A stretch of DNA of 42,047 bases from Escherichia coli (GTDB taxonomy: Bacteria; Pseudomonadota; Gammaproteobacteria; Enterobacterales; Enterobacteriaceae), in the NCBI RefSeq assembly GCF_051903065.1, contig NZ_CP178441.1, one strand, 5' to 3'. A program made the translations under genes and the position numbers. This document shows positions 8,520-38,793 of the stretch, one piece after another; the stretch's first letter is position 1; every line of letters starts with the position of its first letter. Under the pieces are notes generated by a model. The model was given only the letters and a program-made list of their open reading frames with translations. It had not been told where the DNA came from and searched no databases.

Positions 8520-8600
8520 TTGTGTAGACTTTCCTTGGCGTAAACACCGGCGAAAGCCGGGCAGGACATGTAAAGTAGGCCCACCGTAAACGGTGCTTCT
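8520..8600 (-). other. oriT, with nic region on the minus strand (CTTTACATGTCCTG|CCCGGCT; nick predicted between 8562 and 8561) and adjacent hairpin
   Basis: Minus-strand sequence closely matches the recalled RP4 nic region CTTCACCTATCCTG|CCCGGCT, and CCAAGGAAAGTCTACA is identical. A 5-bp stem hairpin lies at 8582..8595. Confidence 0.75.
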
Positions 8601-8688
8601 ACTTTACCTTCCCTTATTCGCAGCGGGGCTGCTCAACGGGAGTCCTGCTCTGCGAGGCTAATCGGCTACCGCCTATATGGAGATCGAG

Positions 8689-23445: not shown

Positions 23446-23471
23446 GATAGGGAGGTTGCAGCCTCCCTATC
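23446..23471. repeat. perfect 10-bp inverted repeat GATAGGGAGG-N6-CCTCCCTATC
   Basis: Read directly. Lies in the divergent intergenic region next to the KorC-type operators. Confidence 0.6.
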
Positions 23472-23481
23472 ATCCTTTGTA

Positions 23482-23524
23482 TAGGACATTATGTCCTGCA
23501 CCTATGATAGGACATTTTGTCCTA
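23482..23524. promoter_or_regulatory. two KorC-type operators (TAGGACATTATGTCCTG at 23482..23498; TAGGACATTTTGTCCTA at 23508..23524) in a divergent promoter region
   Basis: Same 17-bp palindrome family as at 1255..1271 and 41307..41323. Confidence 0.6.
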
Positions 23525-23567
23525 TTTGCAAGTGATTTTCAAACCGTCTAAGGATTGGGAGTGCGCC

Positions 23568-23911: not shown

Positions 23912-24060
23912 ATCGTAGCCGCTGATTTTACGAAATTTTCTTTTTCTTGGCGTAAATCGCATAGCAAATGACAGTAATCACAGCCCAGCAAATAATAAAA
24001 GGGTAGCTCTAAAAGAAGCCAAAGGGGAAATATAAAAAATAAGAGCAAATATTTTCATGT

Positions 24061-24948
24061 TTAACCCTCACCGTAAAGTAAACGTATTTGTTTGATAACG
24101 TTAGCCGCATCACCATTAACAAGTTTATGAAATTCTACAGCCATATCCTTTAGCTCGCTATCTTTCAGCAGCAGCTGCAGTCTCCCTAAGAAAAGTGACC
24201 ATGGTTTTTCGCTATCCATACGGCGGCCAAGGCGGGTATACGTACCGGCGTGGCATTTAGATTCTTCACCATTATGTACTGCGTTCATGAGCCTCACCAG
24301 TGCAATGAAAGTATCCCAATCATGGCGGGTATCAAATTGCGCGGTTTCACAGGTAAACGCCAGAACAGGAGGGCGGTTATCCTCCGGTGTATCGAAGGAA
24401 TTACTGTCATTTCCCCGGACAATAATCGTAAAGGTCTTGTTCCCAACCGTAAACGAATAATCGACGGATTGGATGCCTACCGGCGCGTGTTCGGTTGCAA
24501 ACGTCCTTCTGGATTCTTCATCACGAATATAGAAGCGATGTGCAAAGCCGAACAGATCCTGATAATAGTTAAGACTGCTTTCTATTAGGGTATTATCGAT
24601 GCGGTCACGTATTGCAAAGTAATCAGGGCCAGCCAAATGTTTGCTATCCAGTTGCTTCCTGGCCGCATCTGTCAAAAAAGCTATTTCAGCGGGAGTCAGA
24701 TCAGCAGGTTCATTTGTATTCCAAGGATCGCAAATTTTGTGATGAAGCCTTGAAAGCGTTTTGACCGGTTCAGCTACAAGCCGTGTAAGTTCATTCTGTG
24801 TTCCGTCATTAGCAATATTGTTTAGTGAGTTCTCTATCAGGTTAACCAGGAAAGCGTTAACTGACAGGTTACTTGCTTTTGCATAGGTTTTGATGCGCTC
24901 GACTTGCTCTCGCGACGTTCGCAATGAAATCTGTGTTAACTCCATCAT
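24061..24948 (-). CDS. RHH-domain protein with large unknown C-terminal domain, apparent paralog of 22147..23133 (ORF track start 25008)
   Basis: N-terminus ISLRTSREQVERIKTYAKASNLSVNAFLVNLIENSL is RHH-like. AGGAG RBS before the ATG at 24948. C-terminal region shows loose similarity to that of the 22147..23133 product. Confidence 0.55.
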   Translation of the reverse strand: MMELTQISLRTSREQVERIKTYAKASNLSVNAFLVNLIENSLNNIANDGTQNELTRLVAEPVKTLSRLHHKICDPWNTNEPADLTPAEIAFLTDAARKQLDSKHLAGPDYFAIRDRIDNTLIESSLNYYQDLFGFAHRFYIRDEESRRTFATEHAPVGIQSVDYSFTVGNKTFTIIVRGNDSNSFDTPEDNRPPVLAFTCETAQFDTRHDWDTFIALVRLMNAVHNGEESKCHAGTYTRLGRRMDSEKPWSLFLGRLQLLLKDSELKDMAVEFHKLVNGDAANVIKQIRLLYGEG

Positions 24949-24958
24949 TTCACTCCTA

Positions 24959-24985
24959 TTGAATGATTTATCATTGAATGATGCT
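24959..24985. promoter_or_regulatory. candidate operator: AATGAT-TT-ATCATT palindrome plus a third AATGAT direct copy, upstream of the RHH gene
   Basis: Repeats read directly in the leader of 24061..24948. RHH regulators commonly autoregulate through such repeats. Confidence 0.35.
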
Positions 24986-25175
24986 ACCACATCTAAAAGT
25001 GATGTCATTTCATTTTTATCACATTAATGGCTTTTTTAAGTTGCCTTGATTGACCTAGCCAGTTTAAGCTGTATTTGCAGTAAAAAAGCCATACACTTAA
25101 CGAGTGGGCTTTTAGGGTATACCTTAATTAACTAGCCTACGCATTTACTTTAAAGGCACTTGAGAAGGAGATTAA

Positions 25176-25541
25176 ATGAATTTTATTGCTTTATGGCCTT
25201 TATTGCTGGCCCAAGTGACAGTGATGTCACTGACAGTGATTTTTCTTGCTGCTGACAGGCGTTTTTTTTCATGGGACTGTTTTGTTGTTTGCACTCTGTC
25301 CATGATGATGGCAGAAGGTATTGTTATTATGAAATATGAACTGTGGCATATCCCTCCTGCCCTGCTGGGTCTGGCAGGAGGGTTGTCATGGTCGCTGCTG
25401 CTACTCCATACAGGATATTTCTCAGGCATATCAGAAGGAGCGCATAAGCGTTTGTGGCTCGCTGTCGCCGCAGTGTTTTCTGGTGCGGGAATGATTATAT
25501 TCTACTGGTTGCTCCATGCATCAGAAAACATAATTAAATAA
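25176..25541 (+). CDS. small integral membrane protein (4 predicted TM helices)
   Basis: GGAG RBS. Hydrophobic throughout. Confidence 0.5.
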   Translation: MNFIALWPLLLAQVTVMSLTVIFLAADRRFFSWDCFVVCTLSMMMAEGIVIMKYELWHIPPALLGLAGGLSWSLLLLHTGYFSGISEGAHKRLWLAVAAVFSGAGMIIFYWLLHASENIIK

Positions 25542-25624
25542 CGAATGGATAATGCGAGAAAGAGACATAACCAGAGAATATTGATAGATGATTGCGTGAT
25601 TGATTTGCTGGGGTATTTTATTAT

Positions 25625-26239
25625 ATGAAAATAGCGCGAATATATTTGCGGGTTAGTACAGACGAACAAGATTTAACCCGGCAAAATGAAATTATTGAAA
25701 ATGCCAGGAATAATGGATTCTATGTTGCCGGTATCTATAAAGAAAAGGCGTCCGGTGCAAGAGCTGACCGCCCGGAACTGCAACGTATGATTGATGATCT
25801 GCAGCTAGACGAAGTAGTTATTGCAGAACATATAGATCGTATCAGTCGTTTACCGCTCGATAGTGCGTTAGCGTTAATAAACTCTATAAAAGAGCGGGGA
25901 GCGAAGCTCGCCATTCCCGGTATTGTGGATCTTACCGAACTGGCAAACGCTCAATCCGGTGTCGCGAAGGTCGTTCTGGAATCTGTTCAGGATATGTTAC
26001 TCAAAGTTGCCCTACAGTTGGCAAGGGATGAGTATGAAAACCGTCGTAAACGCCAGAAAGAGGGTATTGAGCTGGCTAAACGGCAAGGCCGGTATCAGGG
26101 GCGAACTGCAAATCTACGGCTCCATAAACGCATCATTGAGTATCGTTCAAGGAAGACGAGTATTGCGGAAACAGCGAAACTTTGTGAATGTAGCGTTAGT
26201 CTTGTAAAAGCTGTATGGTCTAAACATAAAAATAAGTAA
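25625..26239 (+). CDS. serine recombinase (resolvase/invertase family)
   Basis: Catalytic N-terminal motif YLRVSTDEQDLTRQ and a C-terminal HTH. Typical length of about 200 aa. Confidence 0.85.
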   Translation: MKIARIYLRVSTDEQDLTRQNEIIENARNNGFYVAGIYKEKASGARADRPELQRMIDDLQLDEVVIAEHIDRISRLPLDSALALINSIKERGAKLAIPGIVDLTELANAQSGVAKVVLESVQDMLLKVALQLARDEYENRRKRQKEGIELAKRQGRYQGRTANLRLHKRIIEYRSRKTSIAETAKLCECSVSLVKAVWSKHKNK

Positions 26240-26270
26240 TTAAATTTAAATAATATAAGGTAGAGATTAA

Positions 26271-26639
26271 ATGAGCAAAGAAATTAGAGCGGAAAGAATC
26301 AAGAATGTAATTCTGGAAAACTCGACTTATGAAGAACTGGCCGAGAAGACTGGCATTAGCGTGAGTACGCTGGTCAGGATAGCGTCCGGTAAAACTGAAC
26401 CTAAGTTCAGTGATATTATTAAAATTGCGATGGTGACAGGCGTTGATTTAAATGAATTGGCACATGGAGATATTGTTAATATAAAGGAAGATGCAATGCT
26501 AAAAAATGATAAGCAAAATGACGAAGTTGTTAAGGCTCATAATTTCATCGTCTGGAATATATCCAGTTTAGATAAAAAAGATATATTATCTATATCAAGA
26601 ATAGTTTACGCACTTTCGACTTTGAAAAAAAAGCCCTAA
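26271..26639 (+). CDS. XRE-family HTH transcriptional regulator
   Basis: HTH segment YEELAEKTGISVSTLVRIASGKTEP. AT-rich codon usage. Confidence 0.6.
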   Translation: MSKEIRAERIKNVILENSTYEELAEKTGISVSTLVRIASGKTEPKFSDIIKIAMVTGVDLNELAHGDIVNIKEDAMLKNDKQNDEVVKAHNFIVWNISSLDKKDILSISRIVYALSTLKKKP

Positions 26640-26803
26640 TTATTTAATAATGCATAACAAACGTATAAATGTTTTGGTTTCTAACTTCTTTTATTAAAGG
26701 GTGAGGAATGGTCCCTCCCCGCCCTTAATACGCCAGAACAAAGCAAAAAAGAGGCATAACGACACGACCAGCATTAGCATGTTTTAGACGCTAGACGCAA
26801 AAA

Positions 26804-27577
26804 TCAACGTAGTTTGATATTTCCATATACTGCAGCCAGTGCATCAGCTGCAGCCTTGTTATAACGACCCGGTAGTTGCTGTGTGGGCTGCTGATAGTCA
26901 GCTTTTACGACGCTTTCAACCGGTATTTGTTTTACAGAAGCGGAAAAACCAATAAGTTGATTCGGTGTAGTCGGTGTTACTGTTGTTCCGTCATTTTTGG
27001 GCGGTTCTGTAGCGAGTGTGTCGCTTTGTGCAAGGTTAGTAACCAGTGTAATGTTTTTCCCTGCTCTTTCTTCTGGCGTAACTCCAACCGTCGCCTGTTG
27101 AGGCTGTGGAGTAGTCGTTCCTGCAGGTTTCGTTGTGTCAAACGTATTAAAGCGAGCTTCAATCCAGGTCTGCCATTTAGCTGCTTTTCTGATCAGGTCA
27201 GCACGATATACCTTGTTAAATTGAGGCGTTTTTGAATGATAATTTGCTGCTTTTGTCCAGATATCTCCCTTATCATTTTTGATATGGCCGCGTATACGCC
27301 ACGCAGCCAAATCATACGAATAACAGCCTGGCTGTGCTACATCTTCTTCTGTAATGCCGTATTTTTCCAGATCCTTTAAATAAACCGTATTAAACTGCAT
27401 ACGGCCTATATCATATGTGCCGTTTGAGTTACGGTTTTTATTCTCAAGTCCGGGACGACCACCCTCTTTTTCAGCTATGGCTAACATGATGTTAGCCGGA
27501 ACCTGATATTTTATCGCTGCAGTAATTGAGCAAACTACACGTTCAACCTGAGCCGGTGGAATATCTAAATACGGCAT
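26804..27577 (-). CDS. trbN: TrbN / VirB1-like lytic transglycosylase
   Basis: SLT-domain character (…AEKEGG…, …YDIGRMQFN…). Last gene of the trb operon. Confidence 0.7.
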   Translation of the reverse strand: MPYLDIPPAQVERVVCSITAAIKYQVPANIMLAIAEKEGGRPGLENKNRNSNGTYDIGRMQFNTVYLKDLEKYGITEEDVAQPGCYSYDLAAWRIRGHIKNDKGDIWTKAANYHSKTPQFNKVYRADLIRKAAKWQTWIEARFNTFDTTKPAGTTTPQPQQATVGVTPEERAGKNITLVTNLAQSDTLATEPPKNDGTTVTPTTPNQLIGFSASVKQIPVESVVKADYQQPTQQLPGRYNKAAADALAAVYGNIKLR

Positions 27578-27592
27578 ATTATTTCCCTTTTG

Positions 27593-27901
27593 TCAAAAAA
27601 AGCGTAGACGACCAAATTTATTCTGTATTTTATCTACGTAAGCAGGTGAAGCTGATGGGCAATTATTAGTTAGCCATCCTCTTCTTTTTTTCTCTGTTCG
27701 ACTTGCGCTGAATTTTCCATGCTTGAAGCTGATTTGACTGAAATAGTTGTTCACACTCCCCGAACAACCATCCTGGACACTACCTGTGGCAACCAATCCC
27801 CACATGCATAATACGGGTTGGCATGGATCTGCCGCCTTTGTTGGAATGCTGTAAATACTAATAGATAATGCCATCAATGTAACTGATAGATATTTTTTCA
27901 T
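27593..27901 (-). CDS. small secreted Cys-containing protein in the trbM position (ORF track start 27955)
   Basis: Signal peptide MKKYLSVTLMALSISIYSIPTKA from an internal ATG with GAGG RBS. Lies between trbL and trbN. Confidence 0.5.
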   Translation of the reverse strand: MKKYLSVTLMALSISIYSIPTKAADPCQPVLCMWGLVATGSVQDGCSGSVNNYFSQISFKHGKFSASRTEKKRRGWLTNNCPSASPAYVDKIQNKFGRLRFF

Positions 27902-27911
27902 ATTAATAGCC

Positions 27912-29456
27912 TCAGAACTTTGACTTGTTTTTAAATTGTTCGTATTCATCACCACTTTGTGATGTTTGTGTATCTATAGAACCAGTATTTTCTGTTTGAG
28001 TCGTTGTTTGCTCCTCCCCTCCAAGACTGTCGCCGTTGAACTTGTTACTTGTTGTTATGCTCCCGTAGCCAAAAGATTCTTCTGTGTTGTTCGATTGACG
28101 TTCAACAGTTTGCGAACGGATTTGAGAAGCGAGCTTTCCACCTGGAGTTTGTGCAATGATGTCTCTTGCCGCTCTGACTTTTGAGTCATGCTTGGCTGCA
28201 TTGCGTGCAGCCAGGCCGTTAGCCAAACTATTCGCCATATGCGAAGCCATGCGGCCAGCTCGTGAGAATGATGAAGCAAAGCCCTGGCTTCCTCCACTGG
28301 AACTACCTGTACTGTTCTCTGCAGACGAACCACCGGAACCGCCTGATGGTTGTCCTCCAGAAGTATCTACAGAACCGGTATCCTCCCCACTTCCAAATCC
28401 TCCACCTGAACCGCCTTTACTACCAGTACTAGACTCTTCGGCCATCGCTGCTTGTGCCGATTCAAATGCCGCTTTAAGTGCTGATGCACCTCCGGCAGCA
28501 TTTGCAGCACCTGCTGCCGCAGCAGCGCCAGATGCTGCTATTGCGGCTCCTGCTGCAGCAGCAGCCCCAATAATTGCACCGGCACCAAAGCCACCAATGC
28601 CTTGCATTGAAGCACCGCCTACAATACTGCCAACCATAGGAGGAACTTTATTAACAAGAACCAAAAGAACAATTGAGGCTACAAGCATTACAAACATAGA
28701 TTTCATTTGTACTGCGTCATCGCCCATTGCCTGGTAATACTGGTCTATGAAGGATTTTCCAATACCAACAATTAGAACCATTGTGAACAGCTGCAGGGCA
28801 ATTCCTAGAACTGTTTTGAAGTATGTAATGGCAATATCGGAAGTCCAACGAGCCCCCCCAAAACCGAGTAAGAAAATACCGCCGTAACTTAAAATCCAGC
28901 CGGTAATCAGCAGAAGAAGCATATTCACACCGACAAGTGCTAATACGCATAGAATAACTCCGGCTAAAATCAAGCCGACAGTGGAGTCTGCCGGGGACCA
29001 AATAGAAGACTGGTCAACGACTCTTGATACGATATCAAACCCTATATCTACAATGCCCGAAGGCGAGAATGATTTTGATAAACCAGAAGCATTAGCCGCG
29101 AGTTGACGTAATGAATCCTGAATATCTACCGATATTGCCGGGCCGTTTTTTAGCAGATAGAAGAAAAAACCTAACACAGCAAAAAAACGAACTACTTCCG
29201 CAAGAGCTGCCGATAATCCTTCGCCCTGCATTGCCATCATTGCGAATGTCCATACCATTGAAATTACCGCTAATGACCAAAATATCCAGGTCGCGTAATT
29301 TTGTATGGTTCCAGCCCAGGTGCTGGCAACATTTGCAAAGCGCTTAAGGATATCATCAAGTAACCCAGCACTATCTAATGGCGCAGCCTGTGCCTGTGTG
29401 CTGATTAATATCAGCAACACAGATAAGCAAGGATAAATTAGATGCCTGAATTTCAT
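27912..29456 (-). CDS. trbL: TrbL / VirB6-like polytopic inner-membrane protein with Gly/Ser-rich C-terminal tail (ORF track start 29507)
   Basis: Signal peptide from MKFRHLIYPC, multiple TM helices, and a low-complexity G/S/A-rich C-terminus. Confidence 0.7.
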   Translation of the reverse strand: MKFRHLIYPCLSVLLILISTQAQAAPLDSAGLLDDILKRFANVASTWAGTIQNYATWIFWSLAVISMVWTFAMMAMQGEGLSAALAEVVRFFAVLGFFFYLLKNGPAISVDIQDSLRQLAANASGLSKSFSPSGIVDIGFDIVSRVVDQSSIWSPADSTVGLILAGVILCVLALVGVNMLLLLITGWILSYGGIFLLGFGGARWTSDIAITYFKTVLGIALQLFTMVLIVGIGKSFIDQYYQAMGDDAVQMKSMFVMLVASIVLLVLVNKVPPMVGSIVGGASMQGIGGFGAGAIIGAAAAAGAAIAASGAAAAAGAANAAGGASALKAAFESAQAAMAEESSTGSKGGSGGGFGSGEDTGSVDTSGGQPSGGSGGSSAENSTGSSSGGSQGFASSFSRAGRMASHMANSLANGLAARNAAKHDSKVRAARDIIAQTPGGKLASQIRSQTVERQSNNTEESFGYGSITTSNKFNGDSLGGEEQTTTQTENTGSIDTQTSQSGDEYEQFKNKSKF

Positions 29457-38388: not shown

Positions 38389-38793
38389 TTAACTGTTTTT
38401 CTTTTCTTGCATGATCTCCAGCATTGCTTTGGCTTCTTGCTCTAACTTCTGACGTGTATGTTCACTCCACATTCGTACCCGAAAGGCTTGCTGTTCAGAA
38501 AGAATTACGGACACTCTTACATATCCAGGAGGGAGACTTTTTACAGGTTTTCCATCAGCCATAAGCATAAGACTGTGTTCATCAAGGTCAGTTGTTTCAA
38601 GGAGAACGGGAAGGGCTACATCGAGGGCATTAGCAATGGATTCCATCACCCTTAAAGATGGGTTCGCTTTTCCATTTGTTAGGTCCGACAAAAAAGAGAT
38701 TGAAACCCCAGCTTTTTGGGATAGTTCCTGCTTTGTCATGTCTCTTTCTTCAAGAAGTCTGAGGATGTTAGTAAAAAAAATTAGGTTGTACAC
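38389..38793 (-). CDS. trbA: TrbA repressor (XRE HTH plus KorA-like C-terminal domain); likely GTG start
   Basis: HTH MTKQELSQKAGVSISFLSDLTNGK and C-terminal PPGYVRVSVILSEQQAFRVRMW, which matches the KorA C-domain motif. Confidence 0.75.
   Translation of the reverse strand: MYNLIFFTNILRLLEERDMTKQELSQKAGVSISFLSDLTNGKANPSLRVMESIANALDVALPVLLETTDLDEHSLMLMADGKPVKSLPPGYVRVSVILSEQQAFRVRMWSEHTRQKLEQEAKAMLEIMQEKKNS

Follow-up and report, generated by a model that had tools for sequence, protein, structure and literature searches.

The locus described here raises the question of what a serine recombinase encoded on a conjugative plasmid does there, and at which DNA site it would act. The gene lies in a 42,047-nucleotide stretch of Escherichia coli DNA (NZ_CP178441.1), which is referred to below as the window and to which all coordinates refer, with a gene for a small membrane protein before it and a gene for an XRE-type regulator after it. 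An initial annotation, made from the letters of the sequence, had proposed these three plus-strand open reading frames, and all three are found where it placed them. It had also suggested that the recombinase provides multimer resolution in the manner of the RK2 par/mrs region, while reporting that no res site could be identified. The suggestion is supported in silico by the 65% identity of the recombinase to ParA of RP4, by the gene arrangement and by a predicted res site with RP4 geometry. This res-like site, at 25028–25133, falls inside one of the two regions that had been put forward for a search (25010–25175). Taken together, it would seem very likely that an IncP/P-1 clade II plasmid has its multimer resolution system at this locus.

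The recombinase and its replicon

From position 24000 to 28000 the window matches several 41.7-kb conjugative plasmids found in Salmonella and E. coli, including pCFSA664-2, at 100% identity, and its replicon belongs to the IncP/P-1 "clade II" of conjugative plasmids from Enterobacteriaceae. Clade II, for which pCFSA664-2 serves as a reference, is an Enterobacteriaceae-restricted branch with mcr-1, blaKPC-2 and blaIMP-8 borne on its backbone (PMC9499019; Hayakawa et al, 2022). The annotation of pCFSA664-2, available as two stretches that jointly make up the whole 41.7-kb plasmid, describes an IncP-1-type backbone with ssb-trfA, klcA, kleE and a TrfB-related (KorA-like) gene, together with ParA- and ParB-family partition genes, kfr genes, traM-traF and trbB-trbL. 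Rfam detected no structured RNA near the locus, its sole match in the window being traJ-II at 8559–8659.

The recombinase gene, parA (25625–26239, plus strand), encodes a serine resolvase of 204 residues that matches the Pfam family PF00239 (Resolvase, E = 1.1e-22) and is an ortholog of ParA of RK2/RP4. The two proteins align without gaps over 199 of 204 residues with 65% identity and 80% positives (E = 1e-94), the RP4 sequence having been located through a search with ParD. When the protein is aligned with relatives, with RP4 ParA and with the gamma-delta resolvase, the catalytic residues Y7, R9, S11, D71, R72 and R75 are invariant, and the C-terminal region aligns with the helix-turn-helix of RP4 ParA and of the gamma-delta resolvase. 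The extreme C-terminus is about seven residues shorter than in the closest relatives. One relative with 84% identity carries the depositor's name "ParA resolvase". Among solved structures the best match is Sin (2r0q, E = 1.4e-11), with Gin invertase and the gamma-delta resolvase behind it.

The setting of the gene is that of parA in an IncP-1 backbone. The operon that contains it starts at a divergent intergenic region, runs from the Tra1 side towards the end of the trb operon and is convergent with trb, as in RP4; both the position and the orientation of parA are those of the RP4 gene, and the gene is retained in clade II relatives. The trb end is marked by an SLT transglycosylase gene (TrbN-like; 26804–27577, minus strand), convergent with parA-xre. 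The divergently transcribed neighbour on the other side, orf315 (24061–25008, minus strand), encodes a 315-residue protein and takes the place held by parDE in the RP4 layout. Its N-terminus has a weak ribbon-helix-helix (NikA-like) match that falls under the Pfam cut-off. A proposed paralogy of orf315 and orf328 was rejected, there being no similarity between them. RP4 also differs in its flanking genes, since in the window an unrelated membrane-protein gene precedes parA and an XRE gene follows it. Neither Pfam nor the annotation revealed a ParB nuclease (SNase), ParC or ParDE at the window locus, which therefore corresponds to a ParA-res core and not to a full par locus.

A predicted res site upstream of the operon

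The predicted res covers 106 bp (25028–25133) of the divergent intergenic region, some 40 bp ahead of the operon, and is made up of three putative subsites. Subsite I, the predicted crossover site nearest the operon, is a 28-bp element (25106–25133) with halves GGGCTTTTAGGGTA and TACCTTAATTAACT meeting at a central AT (25119–25120). The right half equals the left at just eight of 14 positions by hand count. A core motif, GGGTATACC, occurs once in the window, at 25115, which is 61 bp upstream of the codon that starts orf121, the membrane-protein gene. A 14-bp spacer (25092–25105) separates subsite I from accessory subsite II, a 35-bp inverted repeat (25057–25091) of the form AGCCAGTTTAAG-N11-GTAAAAAAGCCA that is in register with a 34-bp repeat of RP4. 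The centres of subsites I and II are 45.5 bp apart, and in RP4 and the relative L008 the corresponding distance, counted on the alignment, is 45.5–46 bp. Accessory subsite III is a 29-bp element (25028–25056) that begins with TGGCTTTTTTAAG and ends with TTGACCT, in register with the RP4 inverted repeat that runs from GGCGCATTAAGG to AAAATGCGCT. Its left half-site, TGGCTTTTTT, is conserved in the relatives L008 and L010 and its right half is weak. The heptamer GGCTTTT is present 14 times in the window, three of these copies lying inside 80 bp at res.

The assignment of subsites leans on RP4. In that plasmid multimer resolution involves the parCBA operon, the ParA resolvase and res (Eberl et al, 1994, as summarised in PMC6312765 and bioRxiv 10.1101/300236). 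The 137-bp StyI-NdeI res fragment of RP4 holds three elements, namely a 28-bp palindrome adjoining parC, with halves GGTCAAATTGGGTA and TACCCATTTGGGCC, a 34-bp inverted repeat with half-sites GGCGCATT, and a 27-bp inverted repeat in which the same half-sites GGCGCATT recur. Tn502 makes a target duplication of TTAAA in "resII IncP" (PMC7765201), and since the sole TTAAA of the RP4 fragment lies within the 34-bp repeat, this repeat corresponds to subsite II. The crossover subsite of RP4 would be the 28-bp palindrome, as judged from size, symmetry and comparison. When the window and the RP4 fragment are anchored on GGGTATACC, they align with essentially no gaps and each RP4 half-site meets a related repeat in the window, the half-sites being of the GGCTTTT type in the window, in contrast to GGCGCATT in RP4. 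An nhmmer search of the window with the RP4 res by itself gave no match, so the likeness rests on the geometry and the core and not on the overall sequence.

The position of the site was examined in three ways. The RP4 offsets were applied unchanged to the window, with all positions on both strands as background, for which shifts of ±1 were allowed. The six half-sites defined in this way at the predicted res have a mean pairwise identity of 0.558, compared with 0.335 ± 0.039 window-wide, and rank fourth of 83,694. A profile HMM was built solely on the res of two relatives, L008 and L010, whose ParA proteins are 84% and 80% identical to that of the window. It found one significant match in the window, at 25027–25132 (E = 1.7e-15), and the next (E = 0.16) was the res palindrome matched against itself on the reverse strand; there is thus a single res and no inverted second copy. 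Finally, one fixed frame, with subsite III at −92 to −64, subsite II at −63 to −29, the spacer at −28 to −15 and subsite I at −14 to +14, fits 11 ParA-family loci, among them RP4, the uncultured-bacterium plasmid pYK0709-104, Xanthomonas pXff45 and Pseudomonas syringae pPsy0462c. The spacer has the same length in all 11, its sequence being unconserved between lineages, and in every one of them the core lies a short way upstream of the gene that opens the resolvase-containing operon. The core reads exactly GGTATACC in eight of the loci and differs by one base in the other three (GCTATACC in L002, GGTATACT in L006 and GGCATACC in L010). On these grounds the predicted res is placed at 25028–25133, its position, geometry and uniqueness being established at the level of sequence.

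Two other features of the region were considered. Palindromes at 23481–23525 were rejected as resolvase subsites; each is about 15 bp and they look more like repressor operators. A scan of the plus strand inside res gave no sigma-70-like promoter at the threshold used. By eye a weak TTGCAG-17 nt-TAACGA can be seen at 25075–25103, shifted by one base relative to TTGCTG-17 nt-TAGACT of RP4; it carries no weight in the argument for res.

Variable DNA beside subsite I

The two genes that flank parA are variable cargo with separate histories. The first, orf121 (25176–25541, plus strand), lies between res and parA and encodes a small hydrophobic protein of 121 residues with four hydrophobic stretches in a 19-residue Kyte-Doolittle scan and no family match in Pfam, NCBIfam or PADLOC. 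It is absent or replaced in L005, L007, L008, L010 and L017 and truncated in L006. It is carried on a 409-bp segment (25172–25580, plus strand) that is 95.6% identical to pGE3 (IncFIA/FIB/FIC), where the copy of orf121 lies between traF and traQ. In the F gene order that position belongs to trbA (PMC5102898). Around 100 plasmids have copies resembling orf121, and many of these are large plasmids of E. coli. The second gene (26271–26639, plus strand) encodes an XRE/Cro-CI-type helix-turn-helix protein of 122 residues (HTH_3, E = 9e-12), which we regard as accessory. It is found in 33 plasmid records, one of which, pJJ1886_4, is without orf121, and most of it (26244–26558) has no counterpart in pTA13-3. 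The initial annotation had proposed that the two genes are co-acquired cargo. That they are cargo is borne out, but their separate histories, with an IncF-like segment for the one and pJJ1886_4 for the other, mean that they were not acquired together. Its description of this DNA as AT-rich likewise holds for the HTH gene, at 35.0% GC, and not for the membrane-protein gene, at 44.3% GC, which is near the 45.4% of the window; the recombinase gene has 44.2%.

Other identities for these genes were tried and rejected. The XRE protein is not a displaced TrbA, given that it aligns with RP4 TrbA over 26 residues of the helix-turn-helix alone; the actual TrbA ortholog is encoded at 38389–38793 on the minus strand, between trbB and ssb, with 64% identity to RP4 TrbA. 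A DinQ-like type I toxin, which follows the XRE gene in pJJ1886_4, was sought by tblastn, which returned no match at the locus and only chance-level ones elsewhere (E ~5). As for a defence system formed by the three genes, PADLOC had no match for the membrane protein or the recombinase and gave generic HTH matches for the XRE protein.

Comparison with relatives places the edge of the variable DNA at the predicted crossover. The left part of the intergenic region is common to about 160 related plasmids, in which the left 92 bp of res are nearly invariant, and only 22 of these plasmids run on to the membrane-protein gene. In pTA13-3 (L006) and p2-BD-14 (L007) the homology to the window ends directly after GGGTATAC; an mcr-1 plasmid (L005) stays homologous for about 14 bp more, as far as the outer limit of subsite I. 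Identity between pTA13-3 and the window is 99.6% on the left of the site and 91.3% on the right. The interval between res and parA then holds a gene remnant only in pTA13-3, a single ORF of 195 residues in L005, five small ORFs each in L007 and pEN3600, three small ORFs in L008, and a DUF2726 gene with one more gene in L010. After parA, the relatives L008, L014 and L017 have a thermonuclease gene. It is a slightly unusual aspect of these plasmids that variable cargo sits directly beside the predicted crossover point.

Within the clade five kinds of right arm of subsite I can be distinguished (TACCTTAATTAACT, TACCTTAGTTAACT, TACCATAACTGACC, TACTCAACAAAACC and TACCCTAACAGACC), all of which keep a half-site resembling TACC..A....ACC. 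The retention of this half-site suggests selection for a working subsite I. The pattern as a whole is compatible with what would be expected if subsite I were a functional crossover site with DNA exchanged alongside it, and it fits ordinary insertions and deletions too. A more speculative idea, which we put forward tentatively and hold to be rather unlikely, is that subsite I is a natural exchange point for cargo, with ParA recombining the res sites of co-resident plasmids and so shuffling modules in an integron-like manner besides resolving dimers. It is raised because the downstream genes vary by plasmid, those just beyond the crossover dinucleotide including a membrane gene from an F-type tra operon, a DUF2726 gene and groups of small uncharacterised genes, and because all five right arms keep the half-site. 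Transposons offer a comparison, the parA-res region of RP4 being a preferred target of the Tn5053/Tn402 "res site hunter" elements (PMC7765201), and the clade II plasmids similarly have variable DNA directly beside res. Resistance DNA inserted at the res of pEN3600 would mark it as a target of such res hunters, but the resistance genes listed for this plasmid (qnrS1, blaCTX-M-3 and blaTEM-1) lie elsewhere in the stretch examined.

The same variability could be read as decay. ParA would still be made, res would be impaired by the cargo beside subsite I, resolution would be weak or absent, and the region would be kept mainly as a regulatory sequence or as a target of res-hunting transposons. The degenerate right half of subsite I and the weak right half of subsite III, together with the missing RP4 companions ParB, ParC and ParDE, are points that speak against a working resolution system, and the IncF-like segment between res and parA and the replacement right at the site in pTA13-3, where part of the region is missing, point the same way. 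Against such decay, ParA is full length with every catalytic residue present, the left 92 bp of res have stayed nearly invariant across some 160 plasmids, and the half-site has been kept in five different right arms. We therefore consider a decaying remnant improbable and prefer to see the locus as a multimer resolution system.

Relation to known systems and proposed function

The closest parallel to the locus is the parA region of RK2/RP4, with which it has in common, besides the ParA protein, the three-subsite geometry with the GGGTATACC core and the placing of res in the divergent intergenic region upstream of an operon that converges with the trb end. With Sin, the Tn552 Bin3 type of resolvase, the window ParA shares an extra stretch that is missing from the gamma-delta resolvase and that, judged by inspection, falls close to where the long E helix begins. 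The res site of Sin has two subsites and a site for an architectural protein. In contrast, the predicted res of the window has three subsites that align with those of RP4. The resolvases of Tn3 and gamma-delta have the same catalytic residues, and their res is similar in that the subsites measure approximately 28, 34 and 25–29 bp and subsite I has a central AT. Subsites I and II of Tn3 res are 53 bp apart from centre to centre, unlike the distance of about 45.5 bp in the window, where subsite I is also the one nearest to the operon and not the farthest from it; the proteins are only 23% identical in the alignment, and the window gene does not appear to be part of a transposon. Background on Tn3-type res sites is given in a study of SGI1 resolution (PMC12217951).

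These comparisons bear on whether the recombinase might be a cointegrate resolvase of a transposon, or a remnant of one, in place of a plasmid backbone function. ParA-family resolvases are known on transposons as well, and a homolog with 58.6% identity is carried by several thousand resistance plasmids at the least and in pAAA83 has a Tn3-family transposase gene close by. The annotation of the identical plasmid, in the two stretches that cover all 41.7 kb, nevertheless lists no transposase gene, and the placing and orientation of parA as in RP4 and its retention in clade II relatives argue for a backbone gene, so that an origin in a transposon appears very improbable. A related proposal places res, in the Tn3 manner, directly upstream of the recombinase gene, between the membrane-protein gene and parA. 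Tn3-family transposons usually have their res there, and 25545–25624 was the second region that the initial annotation had listed for a search. The profile built from the relatives has no match there, the interval contains no GGCTTTT motif or res-type repeat, and 25542–25580 is part of the IncF-like segment; moreover, RP4 likewise has genes between res and parA. A res in this interval is accordingly less probable still. Least credible of all is a DNA invertase flipping a segment, the reading that the initial annotation had set against resolution, for which a weak Gin-type similarity (E = 8.6e-7) and a match to an Mpi model (31.8 bits, the cut-off being 272) can be cited, since RP4 ParA is a far closer relative, the site is single in the window, the remaining profile matches are weak ones of the palindromic region to itself on the reverse strand, and no inverted arrangement is seen among the relatives compared.

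As a multimer resolution system the locus most likely turns plasmid dimers back into monomers and so would contribute to stable inheritance. By analogy with RP4 and other serine resolvases, ParA dimers would occupy the three subsites of res at 25028–25133. When homologous recombination fuses two plasmid copies, the two directly repeated res sites in the resulting dimer would synapse, ParA would cut and exchange the strands at the central AT of subsite I (25119–25120), and the monomers would be freed. The directionality of the reaction, like the binding of ParA, the point of crossover and the effect on plasmid stability, is modelled here on these better-known resolvases. The IncP-1 resolution site is at the same time the region that regulates the resolvase gene (PMC6312765). 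Since the predicted res of the window lies within the divergent intergenic region immediately ahead of the operon, its binding by ParA probably represses orf121-parA-xre too, as has been described for RP4. The products of orf121 and the XRE gene would be passengers in this operon, not needed for the resolution reaction.

The locus thus appears to be a regular ParA-res module, of a kind that is already known, and what is new is the location predicted for its res. The present understanding of serine resolvases is unchanged by these results. In public records the gene is named merely "recombinase family protein" or "resolvase", no res feature is listed in the annotated plasmid stretches that were compared, and the publications consulted on these plasmids contain no discussion of a resolvase or of res; this gap in annotation is now filled. 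Knowing that a stability module lies here, with cargo-variable DNA beside its subsite I, aids the reading of mosaic plasmids, and the fixed geometry of res combined with a core resembling GGTATACC provides a simple rule for locating the res sites of ParA-family resolvases in other plasmids.

Plasmid size and conserved IncP features

The window, at 42,047 bp, is approximately 351 bp longer than several plasmids of 41,696 bp that are identical to it over the 4 kb compared, and it has no terminal overlap. A full-length Rfam match to the traJ-II RNA (RF01760) is found on the plus strand at 8559-8659, scoring 97 bits where the gathering score is 40. The RNA lies at the start of traJ or just upstream of it, as placed by offset from the annotation of pCFSA664-2, a 41.7-kb plasmid that is identical to the window over the same 4 kb. 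An open reading frame on the minus strand at 38389-38793, flanked by trbB and ssb, encodes an ortholog of TrbA with 64% identity to the RP4 protein. This frame is absent from the PLSDB gene table of pCFSA664-2, a table that is known to be incomplete.

Sequences on the divergent side of res

Divergent from res, the predicted site (25028-25133) of the ParA-type serine resolvase, is orf315, which is encoded on the minus strand at 24061-25008. Its N-terminus gives a weak match, below the cut-off, to the NikA-like ribbon-helix-helix proteins, while protein-family profile searches matched no family to the other ~240 amino acids. In RP4 the position held by orf315 is taken by parDE; ParD is also a ribbon-helix-helix protein. 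Inspection of the sequence at 23446-23525 revealed a 13-bp inverted repeat, GATAGGGAGGTTG/CAGCCTCCCTATC, followed by two palindromes of nearly the same sequence, TAGGACATTATGTCCT and TAGGACATTTTGTCCTA, spaced 26 bp apart. The palindromes look like repressor operators and are similar to the KorC operator of RK2.

The IncF-like segment and related resolvase loci

Over the stretch 25172-25580 this plasmid, itself of IncP type, shares 95.6% identity with the tra operon of IncF plasmids, in which the gene carried by the stretch sits between traF and traQ. Such a level of identity points to a recent exchange between E. coli plasmids sharing a cell as the probable source of the segment.

Among related loci on other plasmids, the ParA of L010 is 80% identical to that of the window. 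Adjoining the L010 res on its upstream side are GTTTAGCTAAAC and TTTAGCAGCTAAA, which match the KorA and KorB operators of RK2. On the side of this res away from parA (L010 1-2900) are CBASS-like genes (Cap15, mCpol, E2/ThiF and JAB). The ParA-family resolvase of pAAA83 (L003) shows 58.6% identity to the window ParA, and it is carried by at least several thousand resistance plasmids. Five CATCGCC-N6-GGCGATG inverted repeats lie upstream of its gene (L003 3620-3840), and the site architecture looks quite unlike that of the window res. In a distant relative, the P. syringae plasmid pPsy0462c (L018 2278-3624), an Arc-family/VapC toxin-antitoxin pair separates the resolvase gene from a res-like site, a further case of cargo within a ParA-type operon.
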